Both the position numbers and the translations under genes were made by a program. 64,000 nt of DNA from Nitrosopumilus sp. (GTDB taxonomy: Archaea; Thermoproteota; Nitrososphaeria; Nitrososphaerales; Nitrosopumilaceae). The notes under the pieces are model-generated. The model searched no databases. It worked only from the letters and a program-made list of their open reading frames with translations, and was not told the origin of the DNA. This document shows, piece by piece, positions 2,190-49,306 of the stretch (position 1 is the stretch's first letter; each line of letters opens with the position of its first letter). The DNA is taken from assembly GCA_965207075.1 (NCBI GenBank), contig CBDBLO010000002.1, forward strand, positions 352,001 through 416,000, written 5' to 3'.

Positions 2190-2206
2190 GAAGAGGTGGC
2201 GCGCCC

Positions 2207-2839
2207 ATGTCCTTTGGCCAGAACGTCGCTGCAACCAAGATCGAGCTCCTAAAGTACAAGCGCTCAAGCCAGGTTGCCACCATGGTCCAGAAGATACTCG
2301 ATGACAAGCGCAAGGTGCTGCTCAAGAACATAGAGGAGATGATAGACGAGGCCTCCAAGGCGCGCGGCGGCATATGGGACCCGCTCCAGGACATCTACAG
2401 GTCCGTCAACGAGGCGTACCTGGCCCTCGGGACGTCCACGGTCGACACGGTTGCAGAGTCCACCCCGCCCATAATGCAGGTCGACGTGTCGGTGCGCCGC
2501 GTGGTGGACGTAAAGATACCGGCGCTCTCGGTCACCGAAAAGGACGACGCGGGCATGCCGTACGGGTTTGCCGACACCAACTCCTCGATAGACAGGGGCG
2601 CAAAGCAGATCAAGGAGCTGCTGCCGAGCATATGCAAGGCCGCAGAGTACGAGAACTCGATATTCAGCCTGGCAAAGGCGCTCGAGAAGACCCAAAAGCT
2701 GCTCAACGCCCTCGAGAACGTGATCATACCCCAGTACCAGCAGCGCATCAGGTTCATACTTGCGACGCTGGAGGAGCGTGAACGCGAAGAGTTCGCAAAG
2801 TTAAAAAAAGTCAAGGCGGCCATGGAGAGTAGAAAGTAG
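2207..2839 (+). CDS. atpD: A/V-type ATP synthase subunit D
   Basis: ATKIELLKYK..LDDKRKVL and LEKTQKLLNALENVIIP..LEEREREEF motifs; start set at ATG 2207 after the atpB stop. Confidence 0.93.
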   Translation: MSFGQNVAATKIELLKYKRSSQVATMVQKILDDKRKVLLKNIEEMIDEASKARGGIWDPLQDIYRSVNEAYLALGTSTVDTVAESTPPIMQVDVSVRRVVDVKIPALSVTEKDDAGMPYGFADTNSSIDRGAKQIKELLPSICKAAEYENSIFSLAKALEKTQKLLNALENVIIPQYQQRIRFILATLEEREREEFAKLKKVKAAMESRK

Positions 2840-2840
2840 C

Positions 2841-2978
2841 ATGCCAAGGGACGACATCAGGGATCTTGTAAAGGACTCCAAGAAATCGGTGGAGCAGGAC
2901 CGCAAAAAGTTCGCGGACTCTGTAAGGAAAGATCTAGAGTCGTTCAAGAAAAAGGCCCTCGAGGACATCAGCAGCTGA
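2841..2978 (+). CDS. 45-aa charged helical protein in the ATP synthase operon (not in ORF track)
   Basis: ATG 1 nt after the atpD stop; MPRDDIRDLVKDSKKSVEQDRKKFADSVRKDLESFKKKALEDISS*. Confidence 0.6.
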   Translation: MPRDDIRDLVKDSKKSVEQDRKKFADSVRKDLESFKKKALEDISS

Positions 2979-3068
2979 GCCTGCCGCCCGTCCGATCCGC
3001 GCACGCGTTGTTCCCGCCCTGCCTGCAAAGCAGCGCCGCCGCGCTTTTGCCCCAACTTGTTATCATGA

Positions 3069-3076
3069 TTTAAATA
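3069..3076 (+). promoter_or_regulatory. Archaeal TATA box for atpK
   Basis: TTTAAATA ending ~28 nt before ATG 3104, in an otherwise GC-rich context. Confidence 0.6.
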
Positions 3077-3103
3077 AGGACTTTCGAGAGGCCACAACAT
3101 AAC

Positions 3104-3415
3104 ATGAAGCCAATAACGCTGGTACTTTTTGCAATAGCGGCAATATCGGTTGTCGGCTCGACCGGCCTTGCATATGCTGCTGAGGACGGCGCATCATCGA
3201 CAGGCTCCGACTCTATGAAGATCCTCGGAGCCGGGCTGGCCTTTGGTCTTGCGGCCTTTGGTGCAGGAATCGGCCTCGGCCAGGTAGGAGCGGCAGGACT
3301 TGCTGTAATCAGTGAGAACCCGGCACTACAGTCAAAGGTGTTCATCTTTATAGGCATGGTAGAGTCGATCGCCATATACGGCATCGTCATGATGTTCATC
3401 ATCCTGGGACAGTAA
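3104..3415 (+). CDS. atpK: ATP synthase subunit c/K (proteolipid) with signal-peptide-like N-terminal extension
   Basis: GAGLAFGLAAFGAGIGLG hairpin; conserved Glu in MVESIAIYG. Confidence 0.95.
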   Translation: MKPITLVLFAIAAISVVGSTGLAYAAEDGASSTGSDSMKILGAGLAFGLAAFGAGIGLGQVGAAGLAVISENPALQSKVFIFIGMVESIAIYGIVMMFIILGQ

Positions 3416-3510
3416 GGCTCGCGGTACTTTCTTCCTATCCACAAATTTTTCTCTCTAGTGTTGTGCGGCCAGCCGCGCGGCCGGCCCCATGCGGCGCGCC
3501 CGCCGGGCTG

Positions 3511-3972
3511 CTAGTTGTACCTGAGCCTGTCCACGTCGAGGGTTCTCGAGCAGTACCTGCACCTGAGCACCCGCCCCTCCCTGTCTATCACGTCCATTAC
3601 GGACTCTATCTTTTCTGCGCTGTTGGTGACGCAGTCGGGGTTGCCGCACCTGAATATGCGGTCGATCTCGTTTGGCAGCGAGACGCGGCGCTTCTCGACG
3701 AGCCTGTATTCCTTTATCATGTTGATGGTGGCCTTGGGGGCTATGACCGCCAGCTTGTTGGTGTCGTCGTCCTTGAGGAACCTGCCCTCCACCTTTATGA
3801 TGTCCTTTTTCTTGAACTTGCCGCTCGGTACGTTGAGGGCTATGGTAATCAGGCTGCCGTCGCTGCCGTCTATCTGCAGGGCGTCAAGCACCTTGAGGCC
3901 CATCCCCTCGTCTATGTGGTCTATCACGGTGCCCTCCCTTATCCGCCTTACAAGCAGCTCGGACTGCTCCAT
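3511..3972 (-). CDS. pyrI: Aspartate carbamoyltransferase regulatory chain
   Basis: IREGTVIDHI, KKDIIKVE, CGNPDCVTN and CRYC zinc motifs. Confidence 0.96.
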   Translation of the reverse strand: MEQSELLVRRIREGTVIDHIDEGMGLKVLDALQIDGSDGSLITIALNVPSGKFKKKDIIKVEGRFLKDDDTNKLAVIAPKATINMIKEYRLVEKRRVSLPNEIDRIFRCGNPDCVTNSAEKIESVMDVIDREGRVLRCRYCSRTLDVDRLRYN

Positions 3973-4000
3973 CAAAATATTTTATACTCACCTCTATATA

Positions 4001-4957
4001 ATGCTGAAAGTGGACAAACACGACTCGGAAAACGGGTTCTACCGGCGCGACGTCATATCGGTAAAGGATCTCGACCGCGCGCAGTTTGAGACCCTGTTTG
4101 CCGCCACGGAGCGCGTCATGAGCATGACGCCCGAGCAGCGCAGGACGCTCTGCGCCGGCTCCACCCTGGGGTACCTCTTTTACGAGCCGAGCACGAGGAC
4201 GAGGCTGAGCTTTGACGCGGCGATGGCCTCCGTGGGCGGCAGCTCGCTTGGCATATCGGACGTCTCCTCGTCGTCCGCGCACAAGGGCGAGAGCCTTGCA
4301 GACACGGTGCGCATGATGTCGATCTATTCTGACGTGCTGGTGCTGCGGCACAAGCTGGACGGCTCCAGCAGGTTTGCATCCGAGGTGTCCTCAAAGCCCG
4401 TCATCAACGCGGGAAGCGGCACAGAGGAGCACCCGACACAGGCAATCCAGGACCTCTTCACCATCAGGCAGGAGAAGAGGAAGATAGACGGGCTGAAGAT
4501 AGGGATAATCGGGGACCTAAAGTACGGCCGCACCGTATACTCGCTGCTGTACGGCCTCGGTAACTATGACGTGGACGTGCGGCTGATCTCGCCAGAGCCC
4601 CTCAAGATCAGGTCGGACTCCACCTACGAGATCAGAAAGAGGCTCGAGTTTGTGGAATCCTCGGACATATCGGACCACATAGAGGAGCTTGACGTGCTGT
4701 ATGTCACCAGGATACAAAAGGAGAGGTTCCCGGACGCCGAGGAGTACCTCAAGGTAAAGGGGAGCTACGTGGTGGGGCTTGACATGCTGCGCCAGATGAA
4801 GAGGGACGCGATAATAATGCACCCGCTGCCGCGCGTCGACGAGATATCGCCGGACGTGGACGCGACTGACAATGCAAAATACTTTAGGCAGGCCGAGTAC
4901 GGAATGCACACGCGCGCGGCGCTACTGGCCGTCATGCTGAACGAGAAGGGCGTCTGA
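4001..4957 (+). CDS. pyrB: Aspartate carbamoyltransferase catalytic chain
   Basis: FYEPSTRTRLSF, HPTQ and MHPLPRVDEI motifs; start is ATG 4001 or GTG 4010. Confidence 0.96.
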   Translation: MLKVDKHDSENGFYRRDVISVKDLDRAQFETLFAATERVMSMTPEQRRTLCAGSTLGYLFYEPSTRTRLSFDAAMASVGGSSLGISDVSSSSAHKGESLADTVRMMSIYSDVLVLRHKLDGSSRFASEVSSKPVINAGSGTEEHPTQAIQDLFTIRQEKRKIDGLKIGIIGDLKYGRTVYSLLYGLGNYDVDVRLISPEPLKIRSDSTYEIRKRLEFVESSDISDHIEELDVLYVTRIQKERFPDAEEYLKVKGSYVVGLDMLRQMKRDAIIMHPLPRVDEISPDVDATDNAKYFRQAEYGMHTRAALLAVMLNEKGV

Positions 4958-5129
4958 GCGGCGCCGCGCCGGCCGTCGTACGATCTGCGCTTGTGCCCGC
5001 CCATGCTCTCGCCCCCGCCCCCACTGCCGTCATCAGGGCCACGTACCGTCTCCCGCTTCCCCCGCAATGACCCTCGGCATCGCCCCGGCTGCTTGATATA
5101 TACGCCTGAACTAGCGCCGTATCCTTGGC

Positions 5130-5849
5130 GTGCCGACAGAAAAGGTTATCCCGATATTCCCGCTTGACTTGGTGCTCTTCCCCCGGCAGGAGCTTCCGCT
5201 GCGCGTCTTTGAGCCGCGGTACAAGCAGCTTGTGGATGACTGCATGCTGGGGGACGGGCAGTTCGGGGCGTGTCTGGTAAGGGACGGCGGATCCGTGCTT
5301 GGATGGAGCATGCCGCACTCGGTCGGGACCATCGCCAAGATCATAAGGTGCAAGGACGTCGGGCTTGACGGGCTGCAGCTGCAGATAGAGACCGTCGGGC
5401 GTAACCCGTTTCGCATAAACGAGATTATAGAACCGTCCATACCACAGCCCCGGGACTATGACCCGCTGTCTGCAGAAGGGCACGAGATCGTATCCGAGAT
5501 GAACGACAAGATGGGCTCGGGCGGCAAGATGTACATCCGCGCCAAGGTTACGATGCTGCCTGAGATCGACGGCAGCATCCCGCTTGACTCGTGGGAGAAC
5601 CTGGTCTTTTTGTGGAAGAAGAACATAAAACACCAGGCGACGTCCGACGACGTCACGCCCGGCGCGCTTGACGAGATGCTGAGGCGCTTTTACCTCGCCA
5701 CGGACACCCCCACCGCGGAGTACGTGTACAGCCTGTGCGCGCTCGCGTCCACGGGCCCCGTCGATCTCCAGGACCTGCTGGAGGCCGAATCGGCCGGCGA
5801 CCTTCTGGGAAGGGCCGAGCGCCTGATGAGGCGCGGCTTGTCCGCCTAG
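5130..5849 (+). CDS. Stand-alone LON peptidase substrate-binding domain protein
   Basis: IPIFPLDLVLFPRQELPLRVFEPRYKQLVDDC signature. Confidence 0.85.
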   Translation: MPTEKVIPIFPLDLVLFPRQELPLRVFEPRYKQLVDDCMLGDGQFGACLVRDGGSVLGWSMPHSVGTIAKIIRCKDVGLDGLQLQIETVGRNPFRINEIIEPSIPQPRDYDPLSAEGHEIVSEMNDKMGSGGKMYIRAKVTMLPEIDGSIPLDSWENLVFLWKKNIKHQATSDDVTPGALDEMLRRFYLATDTPTAEYVYSLCALASTGPVDLQDLLEAESAGDLLGRAERLMRRGLSA

Positions 5850-6101
5850 GCCCCCCATAGCGGTGGTCTGGCCTGCCCGCAAGGGCCCGCGCGGCCGGCG
5901 TGTGCGGCAGACCGCGCGCTGGAAAATTAACTAGTTATACCTCAGAATACAGCACAAGGGCGAGAAGGTTTGGTTTGTGGGCATGACGGCGTTTTGCGTG
6001 TACGGCACGGTTCGGGCCGCGCCGCGGCAGCCCCCGAAGCCGGCAGCCCCCGCATGATTGCGCGCGGCCGCGTCGGGCGCGACAGGCATGGCAAGGGCGC
6101 C

Positions 6102-7625
6102 ATGCAGCTCTCGGGAACCGGCCGGATGCCGCCGACGCCTGCAGTGGTAGTGATGGCGGTCGCGGTAGCCGCACTGTTCGCGGTAGCCGCACCGCAGCCC
6201 CTTCCGGACGTGCCGCTCCCGCCACACGATGGCGCGCCGACCGCCCCCGGGTCGGTGCTGGGAGGCATTATACTGCCCCCGGCATACGGGCACGGACTGG
6301 GGCTTGACCGCATACCGTCAGTCGTGGCCGGGGACCAAAAGATCGTGATACACGTCGAGATGCCACAGGAGCTTGCGGACAATTCGGCCACGGAACGAAT
6401 CACCATCACTGCCACGGACGCCACGACACGCCAGCCTGCCGGGGGGGACATCATATACCGGCTTGGCGCATCGCACGGCGGCCAGACGGTATTCCGGGAC
6501 TACTTTCTTGCGCCTGACGGCGTGCTTGCGCTTGACGTGGAGGCCGCCCGCGGCGACAACCCGGTCATAGTCGGGGAGCGGGGCGGCGGCGGGCCCCTTC
6601 CTGACGCATGGCGCCCCGCCGGCGACAACCCGGTCAGGATAGACGGATCCGCCTTTGGCCACGGCGGGCTCTACACCTTTGATGTCGCAGTGCATGCCAT
6701 AGGGGGGGACGTGATTACAGAGTCCGACACGTATTATGCCGATCTGAGCATCATCGAGTCCGCAGCCCATGCTGGAACCGGCTCTGACGGAAGCCCGGTC
6801 GCATTCGGAACAAAATCCTACTTTGATCAGATTGAAAGCCTCGAGTACAACGCCGAGTCGGGCCTCATAACCATCGTAATGCCGTTTGACTGGAGCGAGG
6901 CCCGGATGTCGCACATACCGGTGGTTCACGTGGAGACGCACTTCCCAAAGGGCTTTCTAGAGTTCCACTCGCCGGGCTACGAGGGATACGCCAACGGCGT
7001 AAAGCTCTTCAGGGCGTCGGTCATCACGGACGACTACACGCTGGAGGACGAGAGGATAGTGCATTTCGTCCTCCTTCAGGATCACACAAGATTTATCAAG
7101 AACGAGATGAAGAAGACCGGCGAGCCGTTCCCGGACAGCATCACGTTCACGCTCGCCATGGCCGAGGAGCTGGAGTTCCCGCTGGTCGCATACACGATAA
7201 GCGAGGAGTTTCTCGTCAACCTGTCGTGGGATCCGCCTGAGATACTTCCCGGGGAGGAGACCACGTTCGTGTTTACCATACGCGACGGGCGGACCGGCGA
7301 GCCGCTCCGGAACTCGGATTACACGTTTGTGATAGAGCAGGGCGGAGACGAGATACACCGCACGTCGGGCCAGGCGCGAATCGGGGGGCAGTTTGTAAAG
7401 TTCACCTTTGCCGAGGATCAGACGGGGCCCACCACGATAAAGTTCGAGGATATACGCGGTACCGGGCAGGAGACCGAGTTTGGCATTCTGGTGGTGCCCG
7501 AGTTTGGGGCGGTCGCGGCAGCGATGCTTGCAGCGGCCGGCGCCACTGCCGTCGCAATGTATGCCGCGTCAAGATATAACGTGCGCGCGAAACGCGCAGA
7601 ACCGGCGCTGCTGCCTGCCGCGTAA
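6102..7625 (+). CDS. Secreted PEFG-CTERM sorting-domain protein (paralog 1 of the YFD/MPFxW/VHxE family)
   Basis: Hydrophobic N-terminus, AYG|HGLG, C-terminal VVPEFG + TM + basic tail; start uncertain (5970-6126). Confidence 0.85.
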   Translation: MQLSGTGRMPPTPAVVVMAVAVAALFAVAAPQPLPDVPLPPHDGAPTAPGSVLGGIILPPAYGHGLGLDRIPSVVAGDQKIVIHVEMPQELADNSATERITITATDATTRQPAGGDIIYRLGASHGGQTVFRDYFLAPDGVLALDVEAARGDNPVIVGERGGGGPLPDAWRPAGDNPVRIDGSAFGHGGLYTFDVAVHAIGGDVITESDTYYADLSIIESAAHAGTGSDGSPVAFGTKSYFDQIESLEYNAESGLITIVMPFDWSEARMSHIPVVHVETHFPKGFLEFHSPGYEGYANGVKLFRASVITDDYTLEDERIVHFVLLQDHTRFIKNEMKKTGEPFPDSITFTLAMAEELEFPLVAYTISEEFLVNLSWDPPEILPGEETTFVFTIRDGRTGEPLRNSDYTFVIEQGGDEIHRTSGQARIGGQFVKFTFAEDQTGPTTIKFEDIRGTGQETEFGILVVPEFGAVAAAMLAAAGATAVAMYAASRYNVRAKRAEPALLPAA

Positions 7626-37024: not shown

Positions 37025-37602
37025 CCCCTCGTGGGGCACGCGATGTTGGAGCACTGCCTCGTCCATTTCTGCTTTGAGGAGTAGCGGAATATCACCTCTG
37101 GCCACGCGCACGTTCCGCACGCCTTCTTCGTGGCGCGCAGCCGCGCCCTCTGCAGAAGCGGCGACGAGGCGTCGCACCCGCCGTAAAAGTTGGAGCACCC
37201 CATAAAGCGCTTGCCGGTCCTTGGCGACTTTATTACGAGCAGCTGGCCTATGCCGCAGTCGGGGCACGGGACCAGCCCGCCCTCCGTGGAACTCGTCCCG
37301 AGTATCATGTACTGGCGCTTTTTTGCGGACCACGAGACGTACCCGCCGGAGTCCATATACTGCACGAGCTGCCTTCTGAGCGTCTCGGCCTCCGGCTTTG
37401 TGGCGCGAACCGAGTGCCTGTCTGCGTGACGCCGCCCCCGTCCTGCCGCCGCGGATCCGGCGCTGGCCTTGGCGCGCCTCTTTCTGCCTGCCTGCCCGGA
37501 TCCCTTCTTTGCTGCCGCCGCCCTTCTTGTGATCTTGGTACCAGTGCCGCCGCCCTTCTTGCCACTTGCAGGCCCGGCGCGGCGCTTGTCGGCTTCTTTC
37601 AT
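37003..37602 (-). CDS. Protein with topoisomerase I-type C4 zinc ribbons and basic N-terminus
   Basis: CPDCG..FMGCSNFYGGC and CGTC..CSNIAC. Confidence 0.8.
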   Translation of the reverse strand: MKEADKRRAGPASGKKGGGTGTKITRRAAAAKKGSGQAGRKRRAKASAGSAAAGRGRRHADRHSVRATKPEAETLRRQLVQYMDSGGYVSWSAKKRQYMILGTSSTEGGLVPCPDCGIGQLLVIKSPRTGKRFMGCSNFYGGCDASSPLLQRARLRATKKACGTCAWPEVIFRYSSKQKWTRQCSNIACPTRGQARKDG

Positions 37603-37651
37603 GAGATATGTTGCTATTACGATTTTTATAGGGATTCTGATTACGCGCCGC

Positions 37652-38809
37652 ATGGAGAAGGTCTGCGTCCTTGGAGCAGGAAGCACAAAGTATGGAAACC
37701 TGGCCAATGACAGCATTGTGGACATTACCACACAGGCCTCCGTTGCGGCAATCGAGGATGCGGGCGTGGACCCCAAGGAGGTAAAGGCCGCCTACATCTC
37801 AAACGTGTTCGGCGTGGCGGACAAGCAGGTGCACATAGGCCCCGTCCTGATGAGCAACCTGGGAATATCAGACCGCCCGTCCCTGTCAATAGAGTCGGCG
37901 TGCGGCAGCGGATCAGTCTCGTTCCGGGAGGCGTATGCAAACGTGGCCGCCGGATTCTACGACTGCCTTGTGGTCACGGGAGTCGAAAAGGTGACGCATA
38001 CCGGCACCGAGTGGACCACGACCTACTTTGCGTACTGTTCTGACTTCTTCTACGAGGGCCAGGCCGGCGCGTCGTTTCCGGGGCTGTTTGCGTCCATGGC
38101 GCGCGCGTACCTGACCGAGTTTGGCGCGACCGAGGAGGACTTTGCCAGGGTCGCCGTCAAGAACCACGAAAACGGGTTCTTGAACCCAAAGGCGCACCTC
38201 AAAAAGCGCATTACGGTCGACGACGTGATGGGTTCCCCCGTGATCGCAAGCCCGCTAAAGCTGTTTGACTGCTGCCCGTTCTCTGACGGCGCCAGCTCTG
38301 TAATCCTGTGCTCTGAAAAGTTTGCCAAGGAGCACGGGGGCGACTATGTAGAGGTTTCAGGCTCGGGCCGGGGCGGCTCGCCCGCAGCGCTGCAGGGCCG
38401 GGAGCACCTCACCACGATCCCCAGCACCAAGATAGCCGCGGACGCGGCATACAAGATGGCCGGCATAACCCCAAAGGACGTGGACTTTGCCGAGGTGCAC
38501 GACTGCTTTACGATAGCGGAGGTGGTTGACACGGAGGACCTGGGATTCTTCAAAAAGGGGGAGGGCGTACAGGCGGTGCGCGAGGGAAGGACGAGCCTCA
38601 ACTCTGAAATTTCGATAAACCCGTCCGGAGGGCTAAAGTCCAAGGGCCACCCGATTGGCGCCACCGGCGTCGGGCAGGTGGTCGAGGTGTACGACCAGCT
38701 GACGGGGCGCGCAGGGGAGCGCACCGTGAAGGACGCCCACATAGGACTCACGCACAACTTTGGCGCCACGGGAGCCAGCTGCGCAGTCCACATATTCCAA
38801 GGCGTGTAA
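37652..38809 (+). CDS. Archaeal acetyl-CoA acetyltransferase (thiolase)
   Basis: ESACGSG, EVHDCF and NPSGGLKSKGHPIGATG motifs. Confidence 0.93.
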   Translation: MEKVCVLGAGSTKYGNLANDSIVDITTQASVAAIEDAGVDPKEVKAAYISNVFGVADKQVHIGPVLMSNLGISDRPSLSIESACGSGSVSFREAYANVAAGFYDCLVVTGVEKVTHTGTEWTTTYFAYCSDFFYEGQAGASFPGLFASMARAYLTEFGATEEDFARVAVKNHENGFLNPKAHLKKRITVDDVMGSPVIASPLKLFDCCPFSDGASSVILCSEKFAKEHGGDYVEVSGSGRGGSPAALQGREHLTTIPSTKIAADAAYKMAGITPKDVDFAEVHDCFTIAEVVDTEDLGFFKKGEGVQAVREGRTSLNSEISINPSGGLKSKGHPIGATGVGQVVEVYDQLTGRAGERTVKDAHIGLTHNFGATGASCAVHIFQGV

Positions 38810-38815
38810 GAAGAG

Positions 38816-39193
38816 ATGTCTGCAAAGGAACAGATGATAAATTATGCCAGAGAGGGCAAGGTGCTTACGCACAAGTGCACCGCGTGCGGGCGCCTGCACC
38901 TGAGCACGGTCTACTTTTGCCAGAGTTGCGGGGCAAAGGACTTTGAACCCGTCGTGCTGGAAGGGCGCGGCAGCGTTGCCACGTACACTATAATTACCGT
39001 CCCCCCCGCGGGATTCGAAGGGTACACCCCGTACGCGTTTGTCGTGCTGCGCCTCGACGACTCCGAGCTCCGCATATCGGGGTTCATGGCGGACATTGCG
39101 ACTCCGGCCGACCTGCCCGTCGGCACCAGGGCCAAGATTACCGGCTTCGATGAGCGCGGCATAGTAATCTCAAAGGACGACGGCGCTTCCTGA
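38816..39193 (+). CDS. DUF35 Zn-ribbon/OB-fold thiolase partner
   Basis: CTAC..CQSC, G.V.TYT..PY; immediately after the thiolase. Confidence 0.92.
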   Translation: MSAKEQMINYAREGKVLTHKCTACGRLHLSTVYFCQSCGAKDFEPVVLEGRGSVATYTIITVPPAGFEGYTPYAFVVLRLDDSELRISGFMADIATPADLPVGTRAKITGFDERGIVISKDDGAS

Positions 39194-39245
39194 ACGGTCC
39201 GCCGCGCGACAACAATTTTATTTTGCGCCCTCCAACCGGTGTATC

Positions 39246-39407
39246 ATGTCTGTGAATGTGGTATGCGGCAAGTGCGGCGAAAAGATCACAAACATGAAGA
39301 TGCTAAAGTCCCTCAAAGACGCGATGGCCTCGAACAACGGCAAGTGCCCCGCATGCGGCGAAAAGCTGTCGTCTTCCGAGTTTGAGCTCGACGCCAGGGA
39401 AAAGTGA
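39246..39407 (+). CDS. 53-aa zinc-ribbon protein (not in ORF track)
   Basis: MSVNVVCGKCGEKI..NNGKCPACGEKL; TTTTATTT about 25 nt upstream. Confidence 0.8.
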   Translation: MSVNVVCGKCGEKITNMKMLKSLKDAMASNNGKCPACGEKLSSSEFELDAREK

Positions 39408-39744
39408 CCCGCGCCAGGAGCGGCGGCGGGCGCGACATGCAGGACGACGGCCTGCCCCAAGCAAGAACTGTCCTGGGCGCAACGTAGTGGCCTGGGAAAA
39501 GCGGCGCTCCTGCCTGAAGCCCGCCATCCATGCCTGCAGCGGCTGTCGCCGTTGACGTTGCCCAGCGCGCGTGAATCCACCGTATCCGCAGTGGTCGGTT
39601 TTTAAACGGCCGTCAGTCCTGTCTGCCGCCCGCGGGCTCTTCGACAACAGCGCAAAAGATCTGCAGCTCTGGCATGTGATCATCCGCTGTTTGGCATGCG
39701 ACACGTCATAATTCTTATTTACTCCGGTTTGGAGCATATTCTGG

Positions 39745-41874
39745 ATGGAGTTAAAAAAAACAGTTACGCCGTCCCGGCCCGTGAAAAAAAACCACACCAA
39801 GGCCACTGAAAAACGCATGAGCTCCATATTCCGGTCCATGTCCAACATAAGCCGGCTCGAAATACTAAAGGTGCTGTACTCGAAGGGATCTACCTCGTAC
39901 ACCGACCTAAAGGCCCTCGCGGGGTTTGGATCCAAAAAGGAGAGCGGCAAGTTTGCATACCATTTGCGCGACTTGACGGCCCTGGCGCTCGTAGAGCGCA
40001 ACAAGTCCGAGCGCCGTTACAACATTACAAACCAGGGCAAGCTCGTGCTGGAGCTTGCCGGAAAGATAGAGGAGAACGCGTTCATGGAGAGCGGAAAACT
40101 GCAGGTGCGCTCGTCGTCCGCGTCCATTGACGAGTTCAAAAAGCACCGCATCGTCCAGTCGCTGGTCAAGGAGGGGAACATGCCCCATGAGCTGGCGGAG
40201 AAGATAACAAAAGAGGTGGAGAACAAGATCCACAAGTACGAGATATCGTACATCACGGGCTCTCTGATCAGGGACATGGTGAACTCCGTCTTGTTGGAGA
40301 CAAACAACGAAGAGTACCGCAACAAGCTGGTCCGCCTCGGCATGCCGCTGCACGACGTGCAGCAGATGCTGTATAATCTGGACGAGGTGGACGGCGGCAT
40401 GGAGAGCCTGATCAGCAGGGCCGGCCGCAACGTCTTCGTTGAGAATACCATGTTCGGCTCGCTGCAGAAGGACGTCGCCGACAGGCACATGGCAGGCACC
40501 ATCCACATATCAAATGTCGGCACGTGGTTTGCCCTGCCCGACGTGATATTTGTCAACATAAAGGATCTTCTTGACGGCGGCATGAACATCGGTGGCAAGC
40601 ACGCGTCGGCATCCCGCATTCAGAGGTTCGGCGGGCCGTCAGATGCAATGGCCTCCGTATGCATCATGCTGCACCTGCTATCCAGGGAGGCGTCCGAGGA
40701 GGTCGTCGTGTCGGGCCTGCCCCGGCTGCTTGCAAAGAGGTGCCCCGATGCAGGCGATGCCGAGATGGAGGCGGGACTGCTGTGGATGTTTGCCGTCTCC
40801 TCCGTCGTGCCCGCCCACACCAAGGAGGGTGGCAACATCACGTCCATACGGCTCAACATGGGGCACGACGACGCCCGGCTGGTAGACTGCATCATAAACG
40901 CCTACTCTAGGTACGTGAGGCTGACTCCCAGGCCCCGCATAGGGCTCATCATAGGCTATGACAAGGGCAGCATAGAGTCCGTCTCCAGCCGCCTGGCCGA
41001 CATCGTAATCGCCGGAGGGCGCGTACTGCTCACAAAGTCGCAGCAGGTCTCAAGCAGGGGCGTCTCAGGCGGCAGCCTCAACAAGACCGACTCCAAGATG
41101 TCGATGGCGCTCCAGTCGGTGTCCGTCAATCTGGCGGGACTGGCCTACGAGGTGGGCAGGGGCGACGCCGAGTACTTTATGGCCAGGCTGGTGCTGCTAC
41201 TAAAGCCCGTGGTGGACGCCATAATAACGCGCAAAAAGGAGCTGTTTGAGAACACGCGCCGCGGCCTCAACCCGCTCATTGCAAGAAACACGCAGTACAT
41301 GCAGTACGGCTATGCGTCGCTTACCATAAACCTGGTGGGCCTCCGCGAGGCGGTCTTTGAAGGCCTGGGGTTCGAGTACAACCGCAAGGGCAGGGAGACA
41401 GTCCAGAAGATAATCACGCATGCAGTTGATGCCGGAGCAAACGGGGCAAGGGAGGCCGGCGAGCGGGTGACCATATGCATCGCGGACGCGCCGGAGGCCG
41501 GCGAGCGCTTTGCCAGGCTCGACGGCAAAAAGTACGGCAAGCATGTCACGGGCCCGGGCCAGACGAGGCCCTACACGCAAGGGCTGGTGTTTGAGGTATC
41601 CGACATTGAAAAGTACACGAACAAGAGCCCCCCCATTACGCTGTCCAACAGGATGAGCCGCTCCCTCAACGCGGGACTCCAGGTCGTGCTGCGCATACCG
41701 GAGACGGAGACTAATCCCGACGTGGTACGGGAGGCGATCGAGAAGATGGCCACCCTGGTTCCGACGTTCTCCCCCTCAAAGGAGGTTATCGTGTGCGCCG
41801 AGTGCGGCTTCAAGGACAGGCCGTTTGACTCGAAGTGCCCCAAGTGCCAGACGCCGCGCCGCGTCCCGGTCTGA
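39745..41874 (+). CDS. ArsR-type HTH + ATP-cone + degenerate class III ribonucleotide reductase (NrdD-like) domain; probably non-catalytic
   Basis: SRLEILKVL..KFAYHLRDL; EFKKHRIVQSL ATP-cone; HMAGTIHI, SVNL, LVGLREA, RFARLD; CxxC..CPKC; no glycyl-radical loop. Confidence 0.8.
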   Translation: MELKKTVTPSRPVKKNHTKATEKRMSSIFRSMSNISRLEILKVLYSKGSTSYTDLKALAGFGSKKESGKFAYHLRDLTALALVERNKSERRYNITNQGKLVLELAGKIEENAFMESGKLQVRSSSASIDEFKKHRIVQSLVKEGNMPHELAEKITKEVENKIHKYEISYITGSLIRDMVNSVLLETNNEEYRNKLVRLGMPLHDVQQMLYNLDEVDGGMESLISRAGRNVFVENTMFGSLQKDVADRHMAGTIHISNVGTWFALPDVIFVNIKDLLDGGMNIGGKHASASRIQRFGGPSDAMASVCIMLHLLSREASEEVVVSGLPRLLAKRCPDAGDAEMEAGLLWMFAVSSVVPAHTKEGGNITSIRLNMGHDDARLVDCIINAYSRYVRLTPRPRIGLIIGYDKGSIESVSSRLADIVIAGGRVLLTKSQQVSSRGVSGGSLNKTDSKMSMALQSVSVNLAGLAYEVGRGDAEYFMARLVLLLKPVVDAIITRKKELFENTRRGLNPLIARNTQYMQYGYASLTINLVGLREAVFEGLGFEYNRKGRETVQKIITHAVDAGANGAREAGERVTICIADAPEAGERFARLDGKKYGKHVTGPGQTRPYTQGLVFEVSDIEKYTNKSPPITLSNRMSRSLNAGLQVVLRIPETETNPDVVREAIEKMATLVPTFSPSKEVIVCAECGFKDRPFDSKCPKCQTPRRVPV

Positions 41875-42168
41875 CGCCTCTCGGTATGCCGCCGCCCGAT
41901 CTCCCGTACACGCCATGGTCCATCCTGCCTGAAAAACGGCCGGCCGGCCAATATGCAGTGCCGCTTGCGTGCCGTGTTGCGATTATCGCAACACGCGGTC
42001 CGGCCTGCCCGATCCTGCCCGGGTTTGTTATATACAAACAGCCCCCTGTCCCTGCAATAATGTATCCATATTATGATATTCGCAGTCCGGCATGGCGCGA
42101 TCCGCGGTTGGCGCGATATTTTTGGCCAAACATTGTGGGGATTTTTGCCTAGACAATTAATATAGCAT

Positions 42169-44892
42169 ATGTTTTCAACCCTTTCGGGGAGTAGCAGTTT
42201 GGATAATTCACAAGTGGGTACCGGTATCAGTGTCATACGCAAGCGCAACGGGGAGATCACGGACTTTGACCAGAACAAGATCGCGAACGCCATATACATG
42301 GCGCTCGCCGCGACCTCGAAGCCGGACCGCGATCTTGCCGCCGCCCTGTCCGGGCACGTCGTCACAAAGCTGGCAGAGCAGGGCTTTACCAACGCCATGC
42401 CGCCCTCCGTGGAGGACATCCAGGACATGGTCGAGTCGACCCTGATCGACAAGGGATACAGCGAGATCGCAAAGGCGTACATCGTGTACCGGCACGAGAG
42501 GCGCAAGGTGCGCAACGAGAAGATGAAGGTGCTGAACCTAAAGACCCTTGATCCCGTCTCAAAGGATTTCGACATCAGCTGCCTGAGGGTGCTGGCGTCG
42601 CGCTATCTGTTTCGCAACAACAAAAACGAGATTGTCGAGACGCCCACGCAGATGTTCGAGCGGGTGGCCATCCTGGTCGGGCTCGGGGACATGCTGTATG
42701 ACTCGGAGCTGTTTGACAGGGCGGGCAGCTCGCACCAGGACGTGGCAGAGGCCGAGTCGTACCTGGACAAGCTGGACGCCTTTGACTGCAAGTTCAGGAT
42801 CGGGCAGTTCCATCTCAACAGGTGGCACTTTCGGGCTCTCATAAACCACTACGTGCACCTGGCAAGGAAGAACCAGATGAAGGCCAGCTTCAAGGAGCTG
42901 CTGACTATGCTGGCCGGCAAGAGGCTTGACGCGTACGCGGACAAGATCCAAGAGTACTACAACCTGATGGTGTCGCAGGACTTTCTGCCAAACTCGCCCA
43001 CCATGATGAACGCCGGCGGCCGGCTCGGGCAGCTGTCGGCGTGCTTTGTCCTTGGGATGGACGACGACATGGAGAACATAATGAAGTCGACGTCGGACGC
43101 CGCCATGATATTCAAGTCCGGCGGGGGCGTGGGCATAAACTACTCGGACCTGCGCCAGGAGGGCGACATAGTGGCGTCCACGTCCGGCGTGGCGTCCGGC
43201 CCCGTGTCCTTTATGAACATAATAAACACAGTAACGGAGGTGGTAAAGCAGGGCGGCAAGCGCCGCGGGGCCAACATGGGCATAATGGAGGTGTGGCATC
43301 CGGACATTGAGAAGTTCATCACAAACAAGACCGAGCCCGGCGTGCTGGAGAACTTCAACGTGTCAGTCGGGATATGGGAGGACTTTTGGGAGGCGCTGGT
43401 GAACGACTCGGAGGAGGGCGGGGCCGGCGGCGCCTACATGCTGCGCAGCCCCAAGACCAAAAAGCCCGTAAAGGAGGTGAGGGCGCACAACCTCATAGAT
43501 ATGATAGCCATGTCGGCGTGGAGGAGCGCCGAGCCGGGGCTGATATTCTTTGACCAGATAAACAAGTACAACGTGTTTGCAAAGGCGCGACAGGGGCCCC
43601 TGCGGGCGACGAACCCGTGCGGCGAGCAGAGCCTGTACCCGTACGAGTCGTGCAACTTGGGATCAATAAACCTGGCCAACCTGGTCAAAAAGCAGGCCGA
43701 CGGCTCGTACGAGTTTGACTGGCAGCGGTACGAGGAGGTGATCCGGAAGACCACCCGCTTCCTTGACAACGTGATTGACGTGAACCTGTATCCGGTGCCC
43801 GAGATCGACGAGGCCTCCAAGGAGTCTAGGCGCATCGGGCTCGGCGTGATGGGCGTGGCCGACCTGCTTTACAAGCTGCGCATACCGTACAACTCGCAGG
43901 AGGGATACGAGATGCAGTCTAGGCTGTCGGAGGCCCTCACGTACTATTCGATGGACGAGAGCGTGGCGCTTGCAAGGTCAAGGGGCGAGTTCCCGCTCTG
44001 CTCAAAGTCCGAGTATCCGGAGGGCCGGATACCCGTCGCCGCATATTATGAGATGCCCACGGGCCGTCACTCCTGCGAGTGGGACGCGCTCGTATCGAAC
44101 ATCAGGCAGTACGGCATACGCAACGTGCTGACCACCACGGTGGCTCCCACCGGCACGCTGTCGATGATTGCAAACTGCTCAAACGGCATGGAGCCCGCGT
44201 TCGCGCTGGTCTTTGAGAAGCGGGTGACGGTGGGCAAGTTCTTTTACACCAACGAGATTGTAAAGCGGGCCCTCATGGAGGAAGGGCTGTACTCTGACGA
44301 GATTATCGAGAAGATTGCCGACAATTACGGGTCGCTGCGCGGAATTCCGGAAATTCCACAGTGGATGCAGGACGTGTTTGTCACGGCGATGGACATACAC
44401 TGGGCCGACCACCTGATGGCTCAGTCCGTGTGGCAGAACTGGATCGGCAACGCGATCGCAAAGACGATAAACATGCCGTACGACGTCACCGCCGATGACG
44501 TAAAGGCCGCCTACCTGCTTGCGCACGAGATGGGACTCAAGGGAATCACCGTGTACAGGGACGGCTCGAGGCAAAAACAGGTGCTGCACATGACAAGCGA
44601 GAATGCGGAAAAGACCTTTGAGGTGAGGCCGAGTCGGTGGGTGATGGACTTTGTGCGCTCCAGTATAACCAACCGGTACATATCGGGACAGATCGACGCA
44701 GCGCTCGCGATAAAGCCACACGACCAGGAGATCGTCGCGTCTGGATCCGACCAAGACTCCGCCCAGCAGGCGCCCGGACACGGGGACATACCCGAGGAGC
44801 GGCTCTGTCCAACTTGCAAGAACGGGCTCGTGTTTGTAGAGGGGTGCTGCATCTGCATAGAATGCGGGTACAGCGGCTGCACGTCGGGTTGA
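42169..44892 (+). CDS. nrdJ: Class II (B12-dependent) ribonucleotide reductase with N-terminal ATP-cone
   Basis: VIRKRNG, PNSPT, LSACFV, KRRGANM, TNPCGEQ, APTGT, GITVYRDGSR; C-terminal Cys cluster. Confidence 0.95.
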   Translation: MFSTLSGSSSLDNSQVGTGISVIRKRNGEITDFDQNKIANAIYMALAATSKPDRDLAAALSGHVVTKLAEQGFTNAMPPSVEDIQDMVESTLIDKGYSEIAKAYIVYRHERRKVRNEKMKVLNLKTLDPVSKDFDISCLRVLASRYLFRNNKNEIVETPTQMFERVAILVGLGDMLYDSELFDRAGSSHQDVAEAESYLDKLDAFDCKFRIGQFHLNRWHFRALINHYVHLARKNQMKASFKELLTMLAGKRLDAYADKIQEYYNLMVSQDFLPNSPTMMNAGGRLGQLSACFVLGMDDDMENIMKSTSDAAMIFKSGGGVGINYSDLRQEGDIVASTSGVASGPVSFMNIINTVTEVVKQGGKRRGANMGIMEVWHPDIEKFITNKTEPGVLENFNVSVGIWEDFWEALVNDSEEGGAGGAYMLRSPKTKKPVKEVRAHNLIDMIAMSAWRSAEPGLIFFDQINKYNVFAKARQGPLRATNPCGEQSLYPYESCNLGSINLANLVKKQADGSYEFDWQRYEEVIRKTTRFLDNVIDVNLYPVPEIDEASKESRRIGLGVMGVADLLYKLRIPYNSQEGYEMQSRLSEALTYYSMDESVALARSRGEFPLCSKSEYPEGRIPVAAYYEMPTGRHSCEWDALVSNIRQYGIRNVLTTTVAPTGTLSMIANCSNGMEPAFALVFEKRVTVGKFFYTNEIVKRALMEEGLYSDEIIEKIADNYGSLRGIPEIPQWMQDVFVTAMDIHWADHLMAQSVWQNWIGNAIAKTINMPYDVTADDVKAAYLLAHEMGLKGITVYRDGSRQKQVLHMTSENAEKTFEVRPSRWVMDFVRSSITNRYISGQIDAALAIKPHDQEIVASGSDQDSAQQAPGHGDIPEERLCPTCKNGLVFVEGCCICIECGYSGCTSG

Positions 44893-45019: not shown

Positions 45020-45835
45020 ATGATATCGCTGGTTATTGCAGAATCGGCCTTGGAGATGGTGCCCCCTGACCTGTACGGGCACCCGGCAGTCAGGGCGCAT
45101 GCGCGCCGAACGCGCGGCGGGAAACGCCAGCACATGCTGCTTGACAACTCCTGGCACTATGCCGCCATGAAAGACATGCCGGATGCTGCAAGACGCGGCA
45201 GGCCCGACCTAGTGCATCTGGCGCTGGTTACGGCTACGTCGGCTCCCCTGTACCGACTGCGCCGCGCCCTCGAGGTGTACGTGCATACCGCGGATGGCTG
45301 CATGATCAGCCTAGGTCCGGGCGTGCGCATTCCAAAGTCATACCACAGGTTTGCCGGATTGGTCGAGACTCTGTATGAGACCGGCGTGATAGAGGCGACG
45401 ACTCGCGATAGTCATGCCAGCGGCGGTTCCAAAGACGCGAGTTGCCGTACCGACTGTGATGGTGACGATGACGACAGCAACGACACTGTGCATCACAGCG
45501 GCAAAGACGGAGCACCTGCACGGGAGGAGACCGTGCTGATGCGTCTTGAGCACAATCGCACCTTTGCCGATCTGGTGCGCGCCAAAAAGTTCTCAAAAGT
45601 GGTGGGGCTCTCCTCCCTCGGGACGCTTCCCGACTCGCCCCGCCCCTACGAGTACGTGGCGCAGAGCGTCCCGGACGCCGCCGCCATCGTGATAGGCGGT
45701 TTCCAAAAGGGGCATTTCTCAGACGGGGTAAGCGGGCACCTTGACGAGGTGTATGCAGTCGACACGTCGCCGCTAGAGGCCCATGTGGTGATCGCGCGCA
45801 TCCTGTACGAGTATGAAAAAAAGCCATTTATGTAA
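45020..45835 (+). CDS. nep1: 16S rRNA pseudouridine methyltransferase Nep1/Emg1
   Basis: RRGRPDLVH, RIPKSYHRFAGL and IGGFQKGHF motifs. Confidence 0.92.
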   Translation: MISLVIAESALEMVPPDLYGHPAVRAHARRTRGGKRQHMLLDNSWHYAAMKDMPDAARRGRPDLVHLALVTATSAPLYRLRRALEVYVHTADGCMISLGPGVRIPKSYHRFAGLVETLYETGVIEATTRDSHASGGSKDASCRTDCDGDDDDSNDTVHHSGKDGAPAREETVLMRLEHNRTFADLVRAKKFSKVVGLSSLGTLPDSPRPYEYVAQSVPDAAAIVIGGFQKGHFSDGVSGHLDEVYAVDTSPLEAHVVIARILYEYEKKPFM

Positions 45836-47734: not shown

Positions 47735-49306
47735 ATGGGAATCTTTGAGCAGCGCACCAAAGTTCTCCAGATATCACTCATATCGATATTCTCGGCGTTC
47801 GTAGTCGAGCTCGTATTCGGGATAATCTCAAACAGCCTGGCCCTGATTACAGACAGCATCCACGCGCTCATGGACTCAGCCACCACCATAATCCTGCTGA
47901 TCGCCGCCCGGATCGCAATGAGGCCCGCCAACGTAGGGCACACATACGGGTACGGCAAGATGGAGCCGCTGGGCGGCTTTGTGGGCGGCATAGCGATACT
48001 GCTGCTTGCCTGCTTTTTCATATACGAGTCGGCCATACATCTGACAGGCCCCGCACCGGATGTACTGCCGAGCCTGATAGGGCTTGTCGGGGGACTGTAC
48101 ACGATCGGCATCGACTTTTTACGCATTGCGATACTGAGAAAGGCACTGCGGGGACTTGGGGGGCACACCCTGAGGGCCGACCTGTACCACGCCTTTATGG
48201 ATGCGGGTTCCACCATGGTGGCCATAATAGGAATCGTCTTGGCGTCCCTTGGTTTCTACCATATGGACTTTGTGGCGGCTCTCGTATTGGGCGTGTTGCT
48301 GGTGATAATCAGTGTGAAACTGATACACAAGACTGCGCTCGACCTGACGGACGCCATACCTCCAAAGCTCGTGTCGGACATCACGGAGATCGTGTTGGCA
48401 GTTCCGGGCGTGCTCCGGGTGGGCTATGTGTTCTTGCGCCGCTCAGGCGACACGCTGTTTGCCGACGTGCTTATCTCTGTGCGCGGCGACGCCAACTTTG
48501 ACTCGGTCTCCAGAATCAATCGCAGCGTTGAGACTGCAATAAAGGACCACGTTGTTGACAAGCCTGAGGACAGCGAGCACGACCATGAGCACGACCATGA
48601 GCACGACCATGAGCACGACCATGAGCACGACCATGAGCACGACCATGAGCACGACCATGAGCACGAGCACGACCATGGCCATGGCCACGACCATGAGCAC
48701 GAGCACAAGCACGGCATCCTGAGCTTTTTCGTGCACGACCATGATCACGGGAACGACCACATCAAGGACGCCCAGATAACAATACATGTCGAGCCCGACT
48801 GGGAGAACGTTCCCATTGACAACAGGCTCGTCGATATTGCAAACACGGTCGAGGGGGTAAAGGCAGCGCACAGCCCAAGCACGCACAAGATGGGCAAGAG
48901 TCTCTATGCGGACCTGCACGTCATGATAGACGGGAACCTAAAACTGAGAAACAGCTACAAGATCTCAAGGGCGATCAAGAAAAAGATCTCCGAGGAACTG
49001 CCGAGCGTCAAGGACGTGACGGCCAGACTCGAACCATTTGAGGAAGGCAAGTCTGACGATGCCGGGGAAAAGTCCATGGATGAGGAGGATCTAATCAGGG
49101 ACATCCTATTCCGTCACGATGCTGTCAAGGGCGTCGGCCGTATACTGTCCCTAAAGTTTGGCAACGTCTCAAAGATTGACATCGAATGCTCCTTTGACGG
49201 CAAGCTTACCATCGCAGAGTCGCACGATCTTCTCATCGACATAGAACACTCCGTTAGGAAGAAGATCAAGAACGCCATCGTGACCATACATCCGATTCCG
49301 GACTAG
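47735..49306 (+). CDS. Cation diffusion facilitator with His-rich insert and three C-terminal dimerisation-type domains
   Basis: SLALITDSIHALMD, HTYGYGKME, LRADLYHAFMD; ITIHVEP, VTARLEP and VTIHPIP domain ends. Confidence 0.92.
   Translation: MGIFEQRTKVLQISLISIFSAFVVELVFGIISNSLALITDSIHALMDSATTIILLIAARIAMRPANVGHTYGYGKMEPLGGFVGGIAILLLACFFIYESAIHLTGPAPDVLPSLIGLVGGLYTIGIDFLRIAILRKALRGLGGHTLRADLYHAFMDAGSTMVAIIGIVLASLGFYHMDFVAALVLGVLLVIISVKLIHKTALDLTDAIPPKLVSDITEIVLAVPGVLRVGYVFLRRSGDTLFADVLISVRGDANFDSVSRINRSVETAIKDHVVDKPEDSEHDHEHDHEHDHEHDHEHDHEHDHEHDHEHEHDHGHGHDHEHEHKHGILSFFVHDHDHGNDHIKDAQITIHVEPDWENVPIDNRLVDIANTVEGVKAAHSPSTHKMGKSLYADLHVMIDGNLKLRNSYKISRAIKKKISEELPSVKDVTARLEPFEEGKSDDAGEKSMDEEDLIRDILFRHDAVKGVGRILSLKFGNVSKIDIECSFDGKLTIAESHDLLIDIEHSVRKKIKNAIVTIHPIPD
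48575..48712 (+). repeat. 12-bp repeat x7 (EHDH) plus degenerate His dipeptides
   Basis: GAGCACGACCAT units. Confidence 0.93.

Follow-up and report, generated by a model that had tools for sequence, protein, structure and literature searches.

We report that gene A, an open reading frame (ORF) in a genome of Nitrosopumilus sp., encodes a protein clearly derived by duplication from the class III ribonucleotide reductase (RNR) NrdD. The protein is under strong purifying selection in every one of its domains and is functional. Judged by its sequence, the protein has lost all radical chemistry and is not an RNR. The gene was studied within a window of 64,000 nucleotides (positions 352,001 to 416,000 of contig CBDBLO010000002.1, assembly GCA_965207075.1; G+C 55-65%), where it occupies 39745..41874 on the + strand (709 aa, stop codon included). 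It is followed in the same direction by nrdJ at 42169..44892 (+ strand, 907 aa), its presumed target. The product combines an N-terminal ArsR-type winged helix-turn-helix (wHTH), an ATP-cone-like domain, a dead NrdD body and a Zn ribbon, and we consider it probable that it is a one-component regulator, derived from an enzyme, that controls the transcription of nucleotide-precursor genes and here chiefly that of the adjacent nrdJ.

Descent from NrdD and loss of the catalytic residues

A single-sequence phmmer search of the PDB found no NrdD, and a profile was required to reach this family: built from 21 orthologues, it retrieved the solved NrdDs 9d3x (E 1.4e-6) and 4coi (E 6e-4). Residues 423-703 of gene A matched positions 262-529 of the 562 in the Pfam profile NRDD, with 77.3 bits. 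The 21 orthologues were also compared by hhalign with eight genuine NrdDs from other Thermoproteota genomes, which aligned query residues 120-706 with NrdD residues 3-665 of 704, from the ATP-cone through the Zn ribbon (probability 99.1%, E 1.1e-18). An AF2 model based on a diverse alignment of 99 rows obtained a mean predicted local distance difference test score (pLDDT) of 91.3 and a predicted TM-score of 0.83; a first model, based on a shallow alignment of 21 close homologues, was discarded as poor (pLDDT 62.5). VIA-align superposed the range 215-691 of the accepted model on T4 NrdD (1h7b) with Z 29.0 and a root-mean-square deviation of 3.1 over 448 residues. All its top 21 rows were NrdDs, and Z was 25-29 against the enzymes of T. 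maritima, P. copri and S. thermophilus. Foldseek likewise placed only chains of class III RNRs at the top (best E 8.5e-20), and class I RNRs appeared from rank 37. By these matches the body (40387..41784, + strand, residues ~215-680) has the ten-stranded alpha/beta barrel of class III RNRs. It is followed by the C-terminal Zn ribbon (41794..41847, + strand), whose four cysteines, Cys684, 687, 698 and 701, are invariant in 21/21 orthologues and align to the NrdD ribbon.

The residues needed for catalysis are absent from this scaffold. By hhalign, Cys174 of NrdD, in the motif PYCVGW, corresponds to Val267 of gene A. The finger-loop MCCR, which carries the thiyl Cys379/380, corresponds to Ser436-Ser437-Arg438 in the 99-row MAFFT alignment and to a gap in hhalign. 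In all biochemically characterised RNRs the finger-loop cysteine is the catalytically essential site of the thiyl radical (PMC9531940). The HxHD motif, which in PcNrdD holds the substrate triphosphate (PMC11226230), reads H254-I-S-N257 in gene A, where genuine NrdDs have HIHD or HIHN. Since the chain ends eight residues past Cys701, the last cysteine of the ribbon, there is no glycyl-radical loop; genuine NrdDs run 44-47 residues further (VYSRVVGYLRPVDQWNDGKQ), including SRVVGY. The ribbon cysteines are the only invariant ones among the 21 orthologues, and in a set of 91 family members a cysteine is found at the Cys174 column in none and at the thiyl columns in three. The genome, which was scanned whole (2.23 Mb, 95.4% complete), has no match to the activase NrdG above threshold (best TIGR02495 match 35.8 bits, cut-off 131.15) and no NRDD match besides gene A, which itself scores 61.6 bits with the NrdD equivalog TIGR02487, far under the cut-off of 326.35. 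Altogether, gene A lacks five of seven NrdD features, namely the thiyl cysteine, the glycyl loop, HxHD with its following cysteine, an NrdG partner and an equivalog-level score.

Much of this had been anticipated in the original prediction, made from the letters of the window alone. Its ORF coordinates and lengths for the two genes are exact, and the motifs it quoted are all found in the gene A translation (HMAGTIHIS, SVSVNLAGL, NLVGLREAV, ERFARLDGKKYG and CAECGF...KCPKC). Structure prediction and alignment against NrdD confirmed the NrdD scaffold that it had recognised, and the alignments bear out its statements that the active-site cysteine is replaced, that an MGCR-type thiyl cysteine is absent and that the chain stops before the RxxGY loop. 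The absence of NrdG, which it had noted for the window, extends to the whole genome. The downstream gene, which it had called a complete class II RNR, is indeed one: the 907-aa NrdJ scores 735.9 bits with TIGR02504 (cut-off 399.95), 488.9 with Ribonuc_red_lgC and 75.5 with ATP-cone, and this adenosylcobalamin-dependent type of enzyme has here an ATP-cone at its N-terminus and a Cys-rich tail at its C-terminus. Gene A appears in databases as 'anaerobic ribonucleoside-triphosphate reductase' or as 'helix-turn-helix domain-containing protein'; the former name is a misannotation, as the enzyme cannot work.

To estimate selection we computed dN/dS (nonsynonymous to synonymous substitution rates) by the Nei-Gojobori method for 29 same-genus orthologues, using the 379 of 406 pairs with 0.2 < dS < 1.5. 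The median for gene A was 0.076, which rules out that it is a pseudogene or relic. By domain, the medians were 0.009 for the wHTH, the most constrained part of the protein, 0.032 for the ATP-cone, 0.08-0.10 for the body and 0.034 for the Zn ribbon. The original prediction had named a lack of purifying selection in orthologues as a sign against it; these estimates point the other way. Of 201 Nitrososphaeria genomes, 178 have a homologue of gene A, as do 159 of the 161 of high quality; none of the 14 genomes of one family (f7) has one. This tally takes in one unpublished genome (G132), on which nothing rests.

DNA-binding domain, cone-like domain and genomic context

The N-terminal wHTH (39802..40074, + strand, residues ~20-110), which the original prediction had described as ArsR-like, matched the Pfam family DUF7347 at residues 27-103 with 34.5 bits (cut-off 27.6), and relatives of gene A matched HTH_20 and HTH_5 as well. 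The predicted model has the order helix-helix-helix-strand-strand at residues 17-94, with pLDDT of 93-98 over residues 21-100, and so displays the recognition helix and beta-wing of the ArsR/SmtB-type winged helix. A profile of 33 N-terminal domains retrieved 26 solved chains at E<=1; most of the names listed are those of ArsR/SmtB-type regulators, headed by HlyU (E 0.0017), ArsR (0.0023) and CadC (0.0055). All 33 domains, which come from ammonia-oxidising archaea (AOA) and from the longer relatives described below, share the invariant motif G-(K/R)-F-x-Y-H-L; it stands where the ArsR/SmtB recognition helix aligns. The putative recognition helix of gene A is ESGKFAYHLRDL.

The ATP-cone of the original prediction was also recovered, as a non-canonical domain at 40096..40344 (+ strand, residues ~118-200): Pfam ATP-cone matched residues 120-191 with 31.5 bits, just over the cut-off of 25.8, and both hhalign and the structural alignments, whose model ranges start at 113-129, place the domain on the NrdD cone. 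The genome has ATP-cones only in gene A and in two NrdJ proteins; as no further protein carries one, there is no NrdR, which leaves room for a regulator of this kind. The second class II RNR with an ATP-cone is encoded outside the window (G000:C2:1257296-1258804, - strand, loci L003/L005; Ribonuc_red_lgC 481 bits), and Cys-rich small reading frames precede it.

The pairing of gene A with an RNR gene was checked across relatives and was found in 44 of 49 loci. In 27 of 29 same-genus loci the next gene downstream, on the same strand, is nrdJ; the remaining two comprise one locus at a contig edge and one without nrdJ in the 1.5-kb flank. Among 20 diverse loci an RNR gene adjoins gene A in 17, being co-directional in 14 (in one of these the RNR is a weaker one, 33% identical), divergent in L041 and convergent in L053 and L058; the other three have no RNR gene within 5 kb. 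In L041 (genome G012) gene A alone is inverted inside an otherwise kept block, and the inversion creates a divergent intergenic region of ~770 nt common to gene A and nrdJ.

An exhaustive search of representatives returned 903 relatives of gene A at E<=1e-3. Many are long forms of 740-780 aa, with the same wHTH and cone, whose match to NRDD spans the whole profile and which retain a vestigial tail of 17-56 residues, YGRxxxxYxPLxxW, in which the radical glycine is mostly replaced. A genuine NrdD above the cut-off is encoded in 60 of 121 sampled Thermoproteota genomes, and many of these 60 carry a sub-cut-off paralogue as well. In a quick maximum-likelihood tree of the body columns (99 rows, rooted only on the eight genuine NrdDs, which are closely related to each other) all 91 paralogues form one clade, with a support of 100 in the Shimodaira-Hasegawa-like approximate likelihood ratio test (SH-aLRT). 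The earliest branches are forms that carry two ATP-cones and lack an HTH; a long branch (length 1.27, SH-aLRT 100) leads to the short AOA-type proteins, which are a derived clade.

We examined the neighbours of long forms at 24 loci outside Nitrososphaeria (L074-L093 and L107-L110), where the gene order of AOA no longer applies. The scan covered 62 of the 78 neighbouring ORFs; the 16 of L087, L089, L090 and L092 were left out, as their loci appeared to be syntenic with L080 and L086. Long forms stand directly upstream of a class II RNR at three loci, all of one family (f15), upstream of a genuine NrdD at L107 and upstream of another NrdD-like gene at L108. At seven of the 16 Pfam-scanned loci they lie beside pyrB and/or pyrI. 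At L088 (G227, 1124-4576) the long form adjoins an MCM-like gene and a phage-type integrase, and this copy may reside in or beside an integrated element.

Candidate cis-elements, proposed function and its alternatives

A TATA-like block, GTCATAATTCTTATTTACTCC, precedes the gene A ATG by 20-40 nt (39705..39725, + strand). It is common to the window and its relatives (GTCAcAAgTCTTATTTACTCC in the upstream alignment) and is a putative promoter. The spacer between gene A and nrdJ (41875..42168, + strand) measures 294 nt, those of relatives mostly 200-330 nt, and in aligned spacers of AT-rich same-genus relatives conserved blocks are seen. It contains five CGAT boxes (41897, 41980, 42010, 42098 and 42114) where 1.08 are expected, and two palindromes. 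One is a perfect 11+1+11 palindrome of 23 bp at 41973..41995, CGTGTTGCGAT-T-ATCGCAACACG, a candidate operator or RNA hairpin. The other, GTTTGTTATATACAAAC at 42023..42039, includes the TATA-like GTTATATA, which is similar to a GTTATAT element of the relatives and may belong to the nrdJ promoter. The core of the 23-bp palindrome, CGAT-N-ATCG, occurs in 20 of 27 same-genus spacers and in none of 29 gene-A upstream regions, and TGAA-N-TTCA occurs in 19 of the 27 spacers. Searching the genome for GTTGCGATNATCGCAAC with up to two mismatches gave one extra site, inside an ORF, so that the palindrome is unique in intergenic DNA. The sequence CGATCATCG has just 1-4 copies per genome of 1.6-1.8 Mb, and one copy lies in the spacer in three of five genomes checked.

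The tetranucleotide GATC is also clustered at both ends of gene A: 101 copies were observed against 19.1 expected in same-genus spacers, and 124 against 11.5 in the 170 nt upstream of gene A in same-genus relatives (L011-L039), an excess of 5- to 11-fold. CATG, GTAC, TCGA and ACGT have no such enrichment in these regions, and 108 control intergenic segments are not enriched in GATC (113 against 98 expected). The clusters could mark an operator, or could reflect methylation-dependent or cell-cycle control. As a regulon motif, GCGATNATCGC was rejected: it has three exact genome sites against one in the reversed control, the other two are coding, one of them within the second nrdJ, and we took them as chance. 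An exact GCGATCATCGC inside the coding sequence of the second nrdJ is probably chance as well. An Rfam scan of 39150-42300 gave no match at E<=1, and a sigma-70 and terminator scan, which is ill-suited to archaea, found nothing above shuffles.

In the mechanism that we propose from these sequence features, the ArsR-type wHTH would bind promoter DNA, probably as a dimer, at candidate sites comprising the 23-bp palindrome and the CGAT(C) boxes before nrdJ. ArsR/SmtB-type regulators are dimers that bind inverted-repeat operators, and NrdD bodies dimerise; we infer dimeric binding from these two properties. Nucleotides would bind the cone-like domain, the pockets that once held effector and substrate in the now dead barrel, or both, and thereby change DNA affinity or oligomeric state, and nrdJ transcription would then follow the pool of (deoxy)ribonucleoside triphosphates ((d)NTPs), either by repression or by activation. 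The former sites of the barrel seem equally plausible sensors. DNA binding, ligand and regulation are thus all putative steps. RNR abundance is described as responding to H2O2 in Nitrosopumilus (PMC6593220).

Several observations weigh against this proposal. Starting with the sensor, the canonical Lys-Arg(-Asp-Gly) lid of the cone is missing: VRSS replaces (R)KRDG, and Ser123-Ser124 stand opposite Lys6-Arg7 of NrdD in hhalign. In PcNrdD the basic side chains of Lys7, Arg8, Arg87 and Arg91 coordinate or neutralise triphosphates (PMC11226230), and Arg192 is the sole gene A residue aligned to one of them. Lys118 and Arg122 are invariant close by. Canonical ATP/dATP binding by the gene A cone is therefore not assured, which weakens the suggestion in the original prediction that the protein reads dNTP pools by means of this domain. 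As for the pairing with nrdJ, the block thiolase-OB-fold-A-nrdJ-Nep1 is syntenic as a whole across AOA, so the adjacency of gene A and nrdJ there is partly inherited and is not independent evidence. The order thiolase - OB-fold (DUF35/ChsH2-like) - gene A (37469-41874 in the window) recurs in another Thermoproteota family, at L086 (G284, 2806-6695) and also at L080 and L093; this order is old, and no functional link between the genes is obvious. Neither an RNR nor a pyrB/pyrI gene is found next to the long form at 13 of the 24 loci. Candidate operators occur in the window and in relatives at genus level. Across the 20 diverse loci GATC shows weak enrichment (15 copies for an expectation of 9.0, and 19 for 10.2), and palindromes of the form 4+N(0-8)+4, sought across 13 lineage representatives, reached 4/13 at best, a value that shuffles also reach. 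AOA families have almost the same recognition helix, but not the same operator signal. CGAT-N-ATCG was not found in the stretch examined upstream of the second nrdJ. Finally, the candidate sites sit upstream of the TATA-like element, a position at odds with the simple geometry of an NrdR-like repressor.

Part of this evidence would be accommodated if gene A encoded a DNA-binding regulator for which nrdJ is not the specific target, with a broader role in nucleotide metabolism, replication or the cell cycle and with nrdJ next to it by inherited order. The conservation of the whole block in AOA, the recurrence of its first part in another family, and the absence of an operator common to all lineages agree with this, as does the higher count of long forms beside pyrB/pyrI (7/16) than beside RNR genes (3/16); methylation or control of the cell cycle could explain the GATC clusters in both promoters just as well. 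We nevertheless think it unlikely, because the RNR neighbour is retained despite the inversion of gene A alone in L041 and the convergent orientation of the pair in L053 and L058, because outside AOA the same position is taken by an RNR gene of class II (f15) or, in a different class, by a genuine class III gene (L107), and because the palindrome core is specific to the nrdJ spacer. A separate question concerns the 23-bp palindrome only, which might be an RNA hairpin, at the 3' end of the gene A transcript as a terminator or in the 5' part of the nrdJ mRNA, instead of an operator. As RNA it folds at -30 kcal/mol (z -3.66), which none of 200 shuffles matched, it lies ~100 nt past the gene A stop codon, and its outer arms differ between the window and relatives and are still complementary in some (the window and L012); strong folding and complementarity kept despite changed arms suggest that it may be an RNA or terminator element. 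On the other hand, the CGAT-N-ATCG core is conserved in sequence, beyond pairing, the outer arms are non-complementary in most relatives in the spacer alignment, no Rfam family matched, and archaeal termination generally takes place at oligo-T tracts and not at hairpins. We regard the hairpin as possible, if doubtful.

Two further alternatives deny gene A a transcriptional role. The protein could be a partner of NrdJ, serving as allosteric modulator, scaffold or nucleotide buffer, with a wHTH used for protein contacts or localisation. RNR bodies are dimerisation modules, the body of gene A is kept under purifying selection and the gene adjoins nrdJ, all of which would suit a partner. Yet the wHTH is the most constrained part of the protein, its closest solved relatives are DNA-binding ArsR/SmtB regulators, and many relatives lie beside pyrB/pyrI instead of an RNR gene. 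Moreover, the dimer interfaces of class II and class III RNRs are reported to differ (PMC9531940), and a heterodimer of NrdJ and gene A is therefore not expected. Taken together, these points make a pure protein partner quite improbable. Least probable of all, to a degree that we would hardly entertain it, is that the barrel still performs nucleotide chemistry of a non-radical or differently initiated kind. It could account for the conserved patches of the barrel (Asn462, of the INLPR motif, is kept in 91/91 rows; Arg588, Asp593 and Tyr610 are kept in >=90% of the 99 rows) and it agrees with the reductase label in databases, but the Ser-Ser at the thiyl site, the loss of the glycyl loop, of the activase and of HxHD, and the low score with the NCBIfam NrdD model all speak against an enzyme. 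A regulator acting chiefly on nrdJ thus remains the reading that we favour. A far-reaching version of it is tentative, and on balance we doubt it: the dead barrel would keep the RNR specificity site and/or the substrate pocket, sense the balance of several (d)NTPs and not just ATP/dATP, and set how RNR genes and, in other archaea, pyrBI genes are transcribed. Such a protein would be of ancient origin and would act across archaea, spanning Thermoproteota, as a master regulator of the supply of DNA precursors; built from recycled allosteric machinery, it would have outlived the loss of the enzyme as ammonia oxidisers turned aerobic.

Surroundings, significance and comparison with known systems

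Contigs from two sponge metatranscriptome studies (runs X1 and X2), 95-99% identical to the region 38000-44881, cover parts of gene A and nrdJ. They are weak evidence of expression, since DNA can occur in such libraries. No contig covers 39335-39868, 40670-40936 or 44942-46000, and none crosses the spacer; these gaps are uninformative on transcript boundaries. Genomic runs carry the locus at >=99% identity, and from both kinds of match the organism or a close strain appears to be sponge-associated. Other features of the surroundings deserve mention. A 53-aa Zn-ribbon ORF (MSVNVVCGKCGEK...CPACGEK...) lies at 39246-39407 (+ strand), between the OB-fold gene and gene A; it falls below the 60-aa threshold of the ORF listing and is kept at the same position in same-genus relatives, as the upstream alignment shows. 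Downstream of nrdJ, a homologue of the methyltransferase EMG1/Nep1 (45020-45835, + strand) matches Pfam in two stretches and has an Asp/Ser/Gly-rich stretch in its translation (…CDGDDDDSNDT…). A 523-aa membrane protein (47735-49306, + strand) has a long His/Asp/Glu repeat (…HDHEHDHEHDHEHDHEH…), read from its translation, and looks like a cation-efflux transporter of the cation diffusion facilitator (CDF) type with a metal-binding loop.

Control of RNR genes in archaea is essentially unknown, and the gene A family is a concrete candidate for it, occurring in nearly every ammonia-oxidising archaeon examined; these organisms are among the most abundant microbes of the ocean (PMC6593220). If our proposal is true, the family would be a clear case of an enzyme fold and its allosteric apparatus recycled into a transcription factor. 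The analysis also corrects a widespread misannotation, by which aerobic ammonia oxidisers are credited with a non-working anaerobic reductase. Literature searches (on DUF7347, on NrdD-like proteins or pseudoenzymes, on RNR of Nitrosopumilus or AOA, and on ATP-cone with HTH), whose scope left aside subscription journals and supplements, gave no description of the family, and as far as these searches go the long-form paralogues are likewise undescribed. PMC9669993 makes no mention of HTH, inactive or Thaumarchaeota. New here are the selection figures per domain, the losses of HxHD and of Lys-Arg, the pyrB/pyrI counts, the candidate cis-elements and the negative result for an operator across lineages.

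Gene A can be set beside four known or related groups. With the NrdDs of T4 (1h7b), T. maritima (4coi), P. copri (8p2s) and S. thermophilus (9d3x) it has in common the barrel fold, the domain order ATP-cone - body - Zn ribbon and the motifs (I/V)NLP and RLA..D. It differs from them by its extra N-terminal wHTH and by the absence of the thiyl cysteine, the second active-site cysteine, HxHD and the glycyl-radical domain, as well as of an activase in the genome. The long-form paralogues (e.g., P0157 and P0165) have the same wHTH, ATP-cone and NrdD-like architecture, have also lost the equivalent of Cys174, and belong to the same clade; unlike gene A, they keep the vestigial tail, match the full NRDD profile and often co-exist with a genuine NrdD.

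Among DNA-binding proteins, the closest solved relatives of the N-terminus are the ArsR/SmtB regulators HlyU (3jth), ArsR (6j05), CadC (1u2w) and SmtB (1r22), at E 0.0017-0.6, and their recognition helix (..QHL..L) aligns to the invariant FxYHL of the gene A family. This likeness is weak and does not extend to the metalloregulator subfamily (HTH_metalloreg NF033788, 18.6 bits against a cut-off of 55). Compared with these regulators, the gene A wHTH has a four-residue insertion before the recognition helix, and its putative sensor is the fused enzyme-derived body and not the wHTH dimer. The bacterial RNR-specific repressor NrdR is a protein of ~150 aa with an N-terminal Zn ribbon and an ATP-cone (PMC9110341, PMC12176259) and is described as 'rare in archaea' (PMC9110341). 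Gene A resembles it in joining a DNA-binding module to an ATP-cone, in its genomic tie to RNR genes and in the proposed logic, from nucleotide state to RNR transcription. However, the DNA-binding domain of gene A is an ArsR-type wHTH and not an N-terminal Zn ribbon, its sole Zn ribbon being C-terminal and NrdD-derived. It is also ~5 times larger, with a whole dead NrdD barrel and a cone without the canonical Lys-Arg lid. Its candidate sites lie upstream of a TATA-like element, whereas NrdR boxes lie upstream of the transcription start and also overlap it, and the two proteins have no sequence relationship beyond the cone. Gene A would therefore be at most a functional analogue of NrdR, and not a member of that family.

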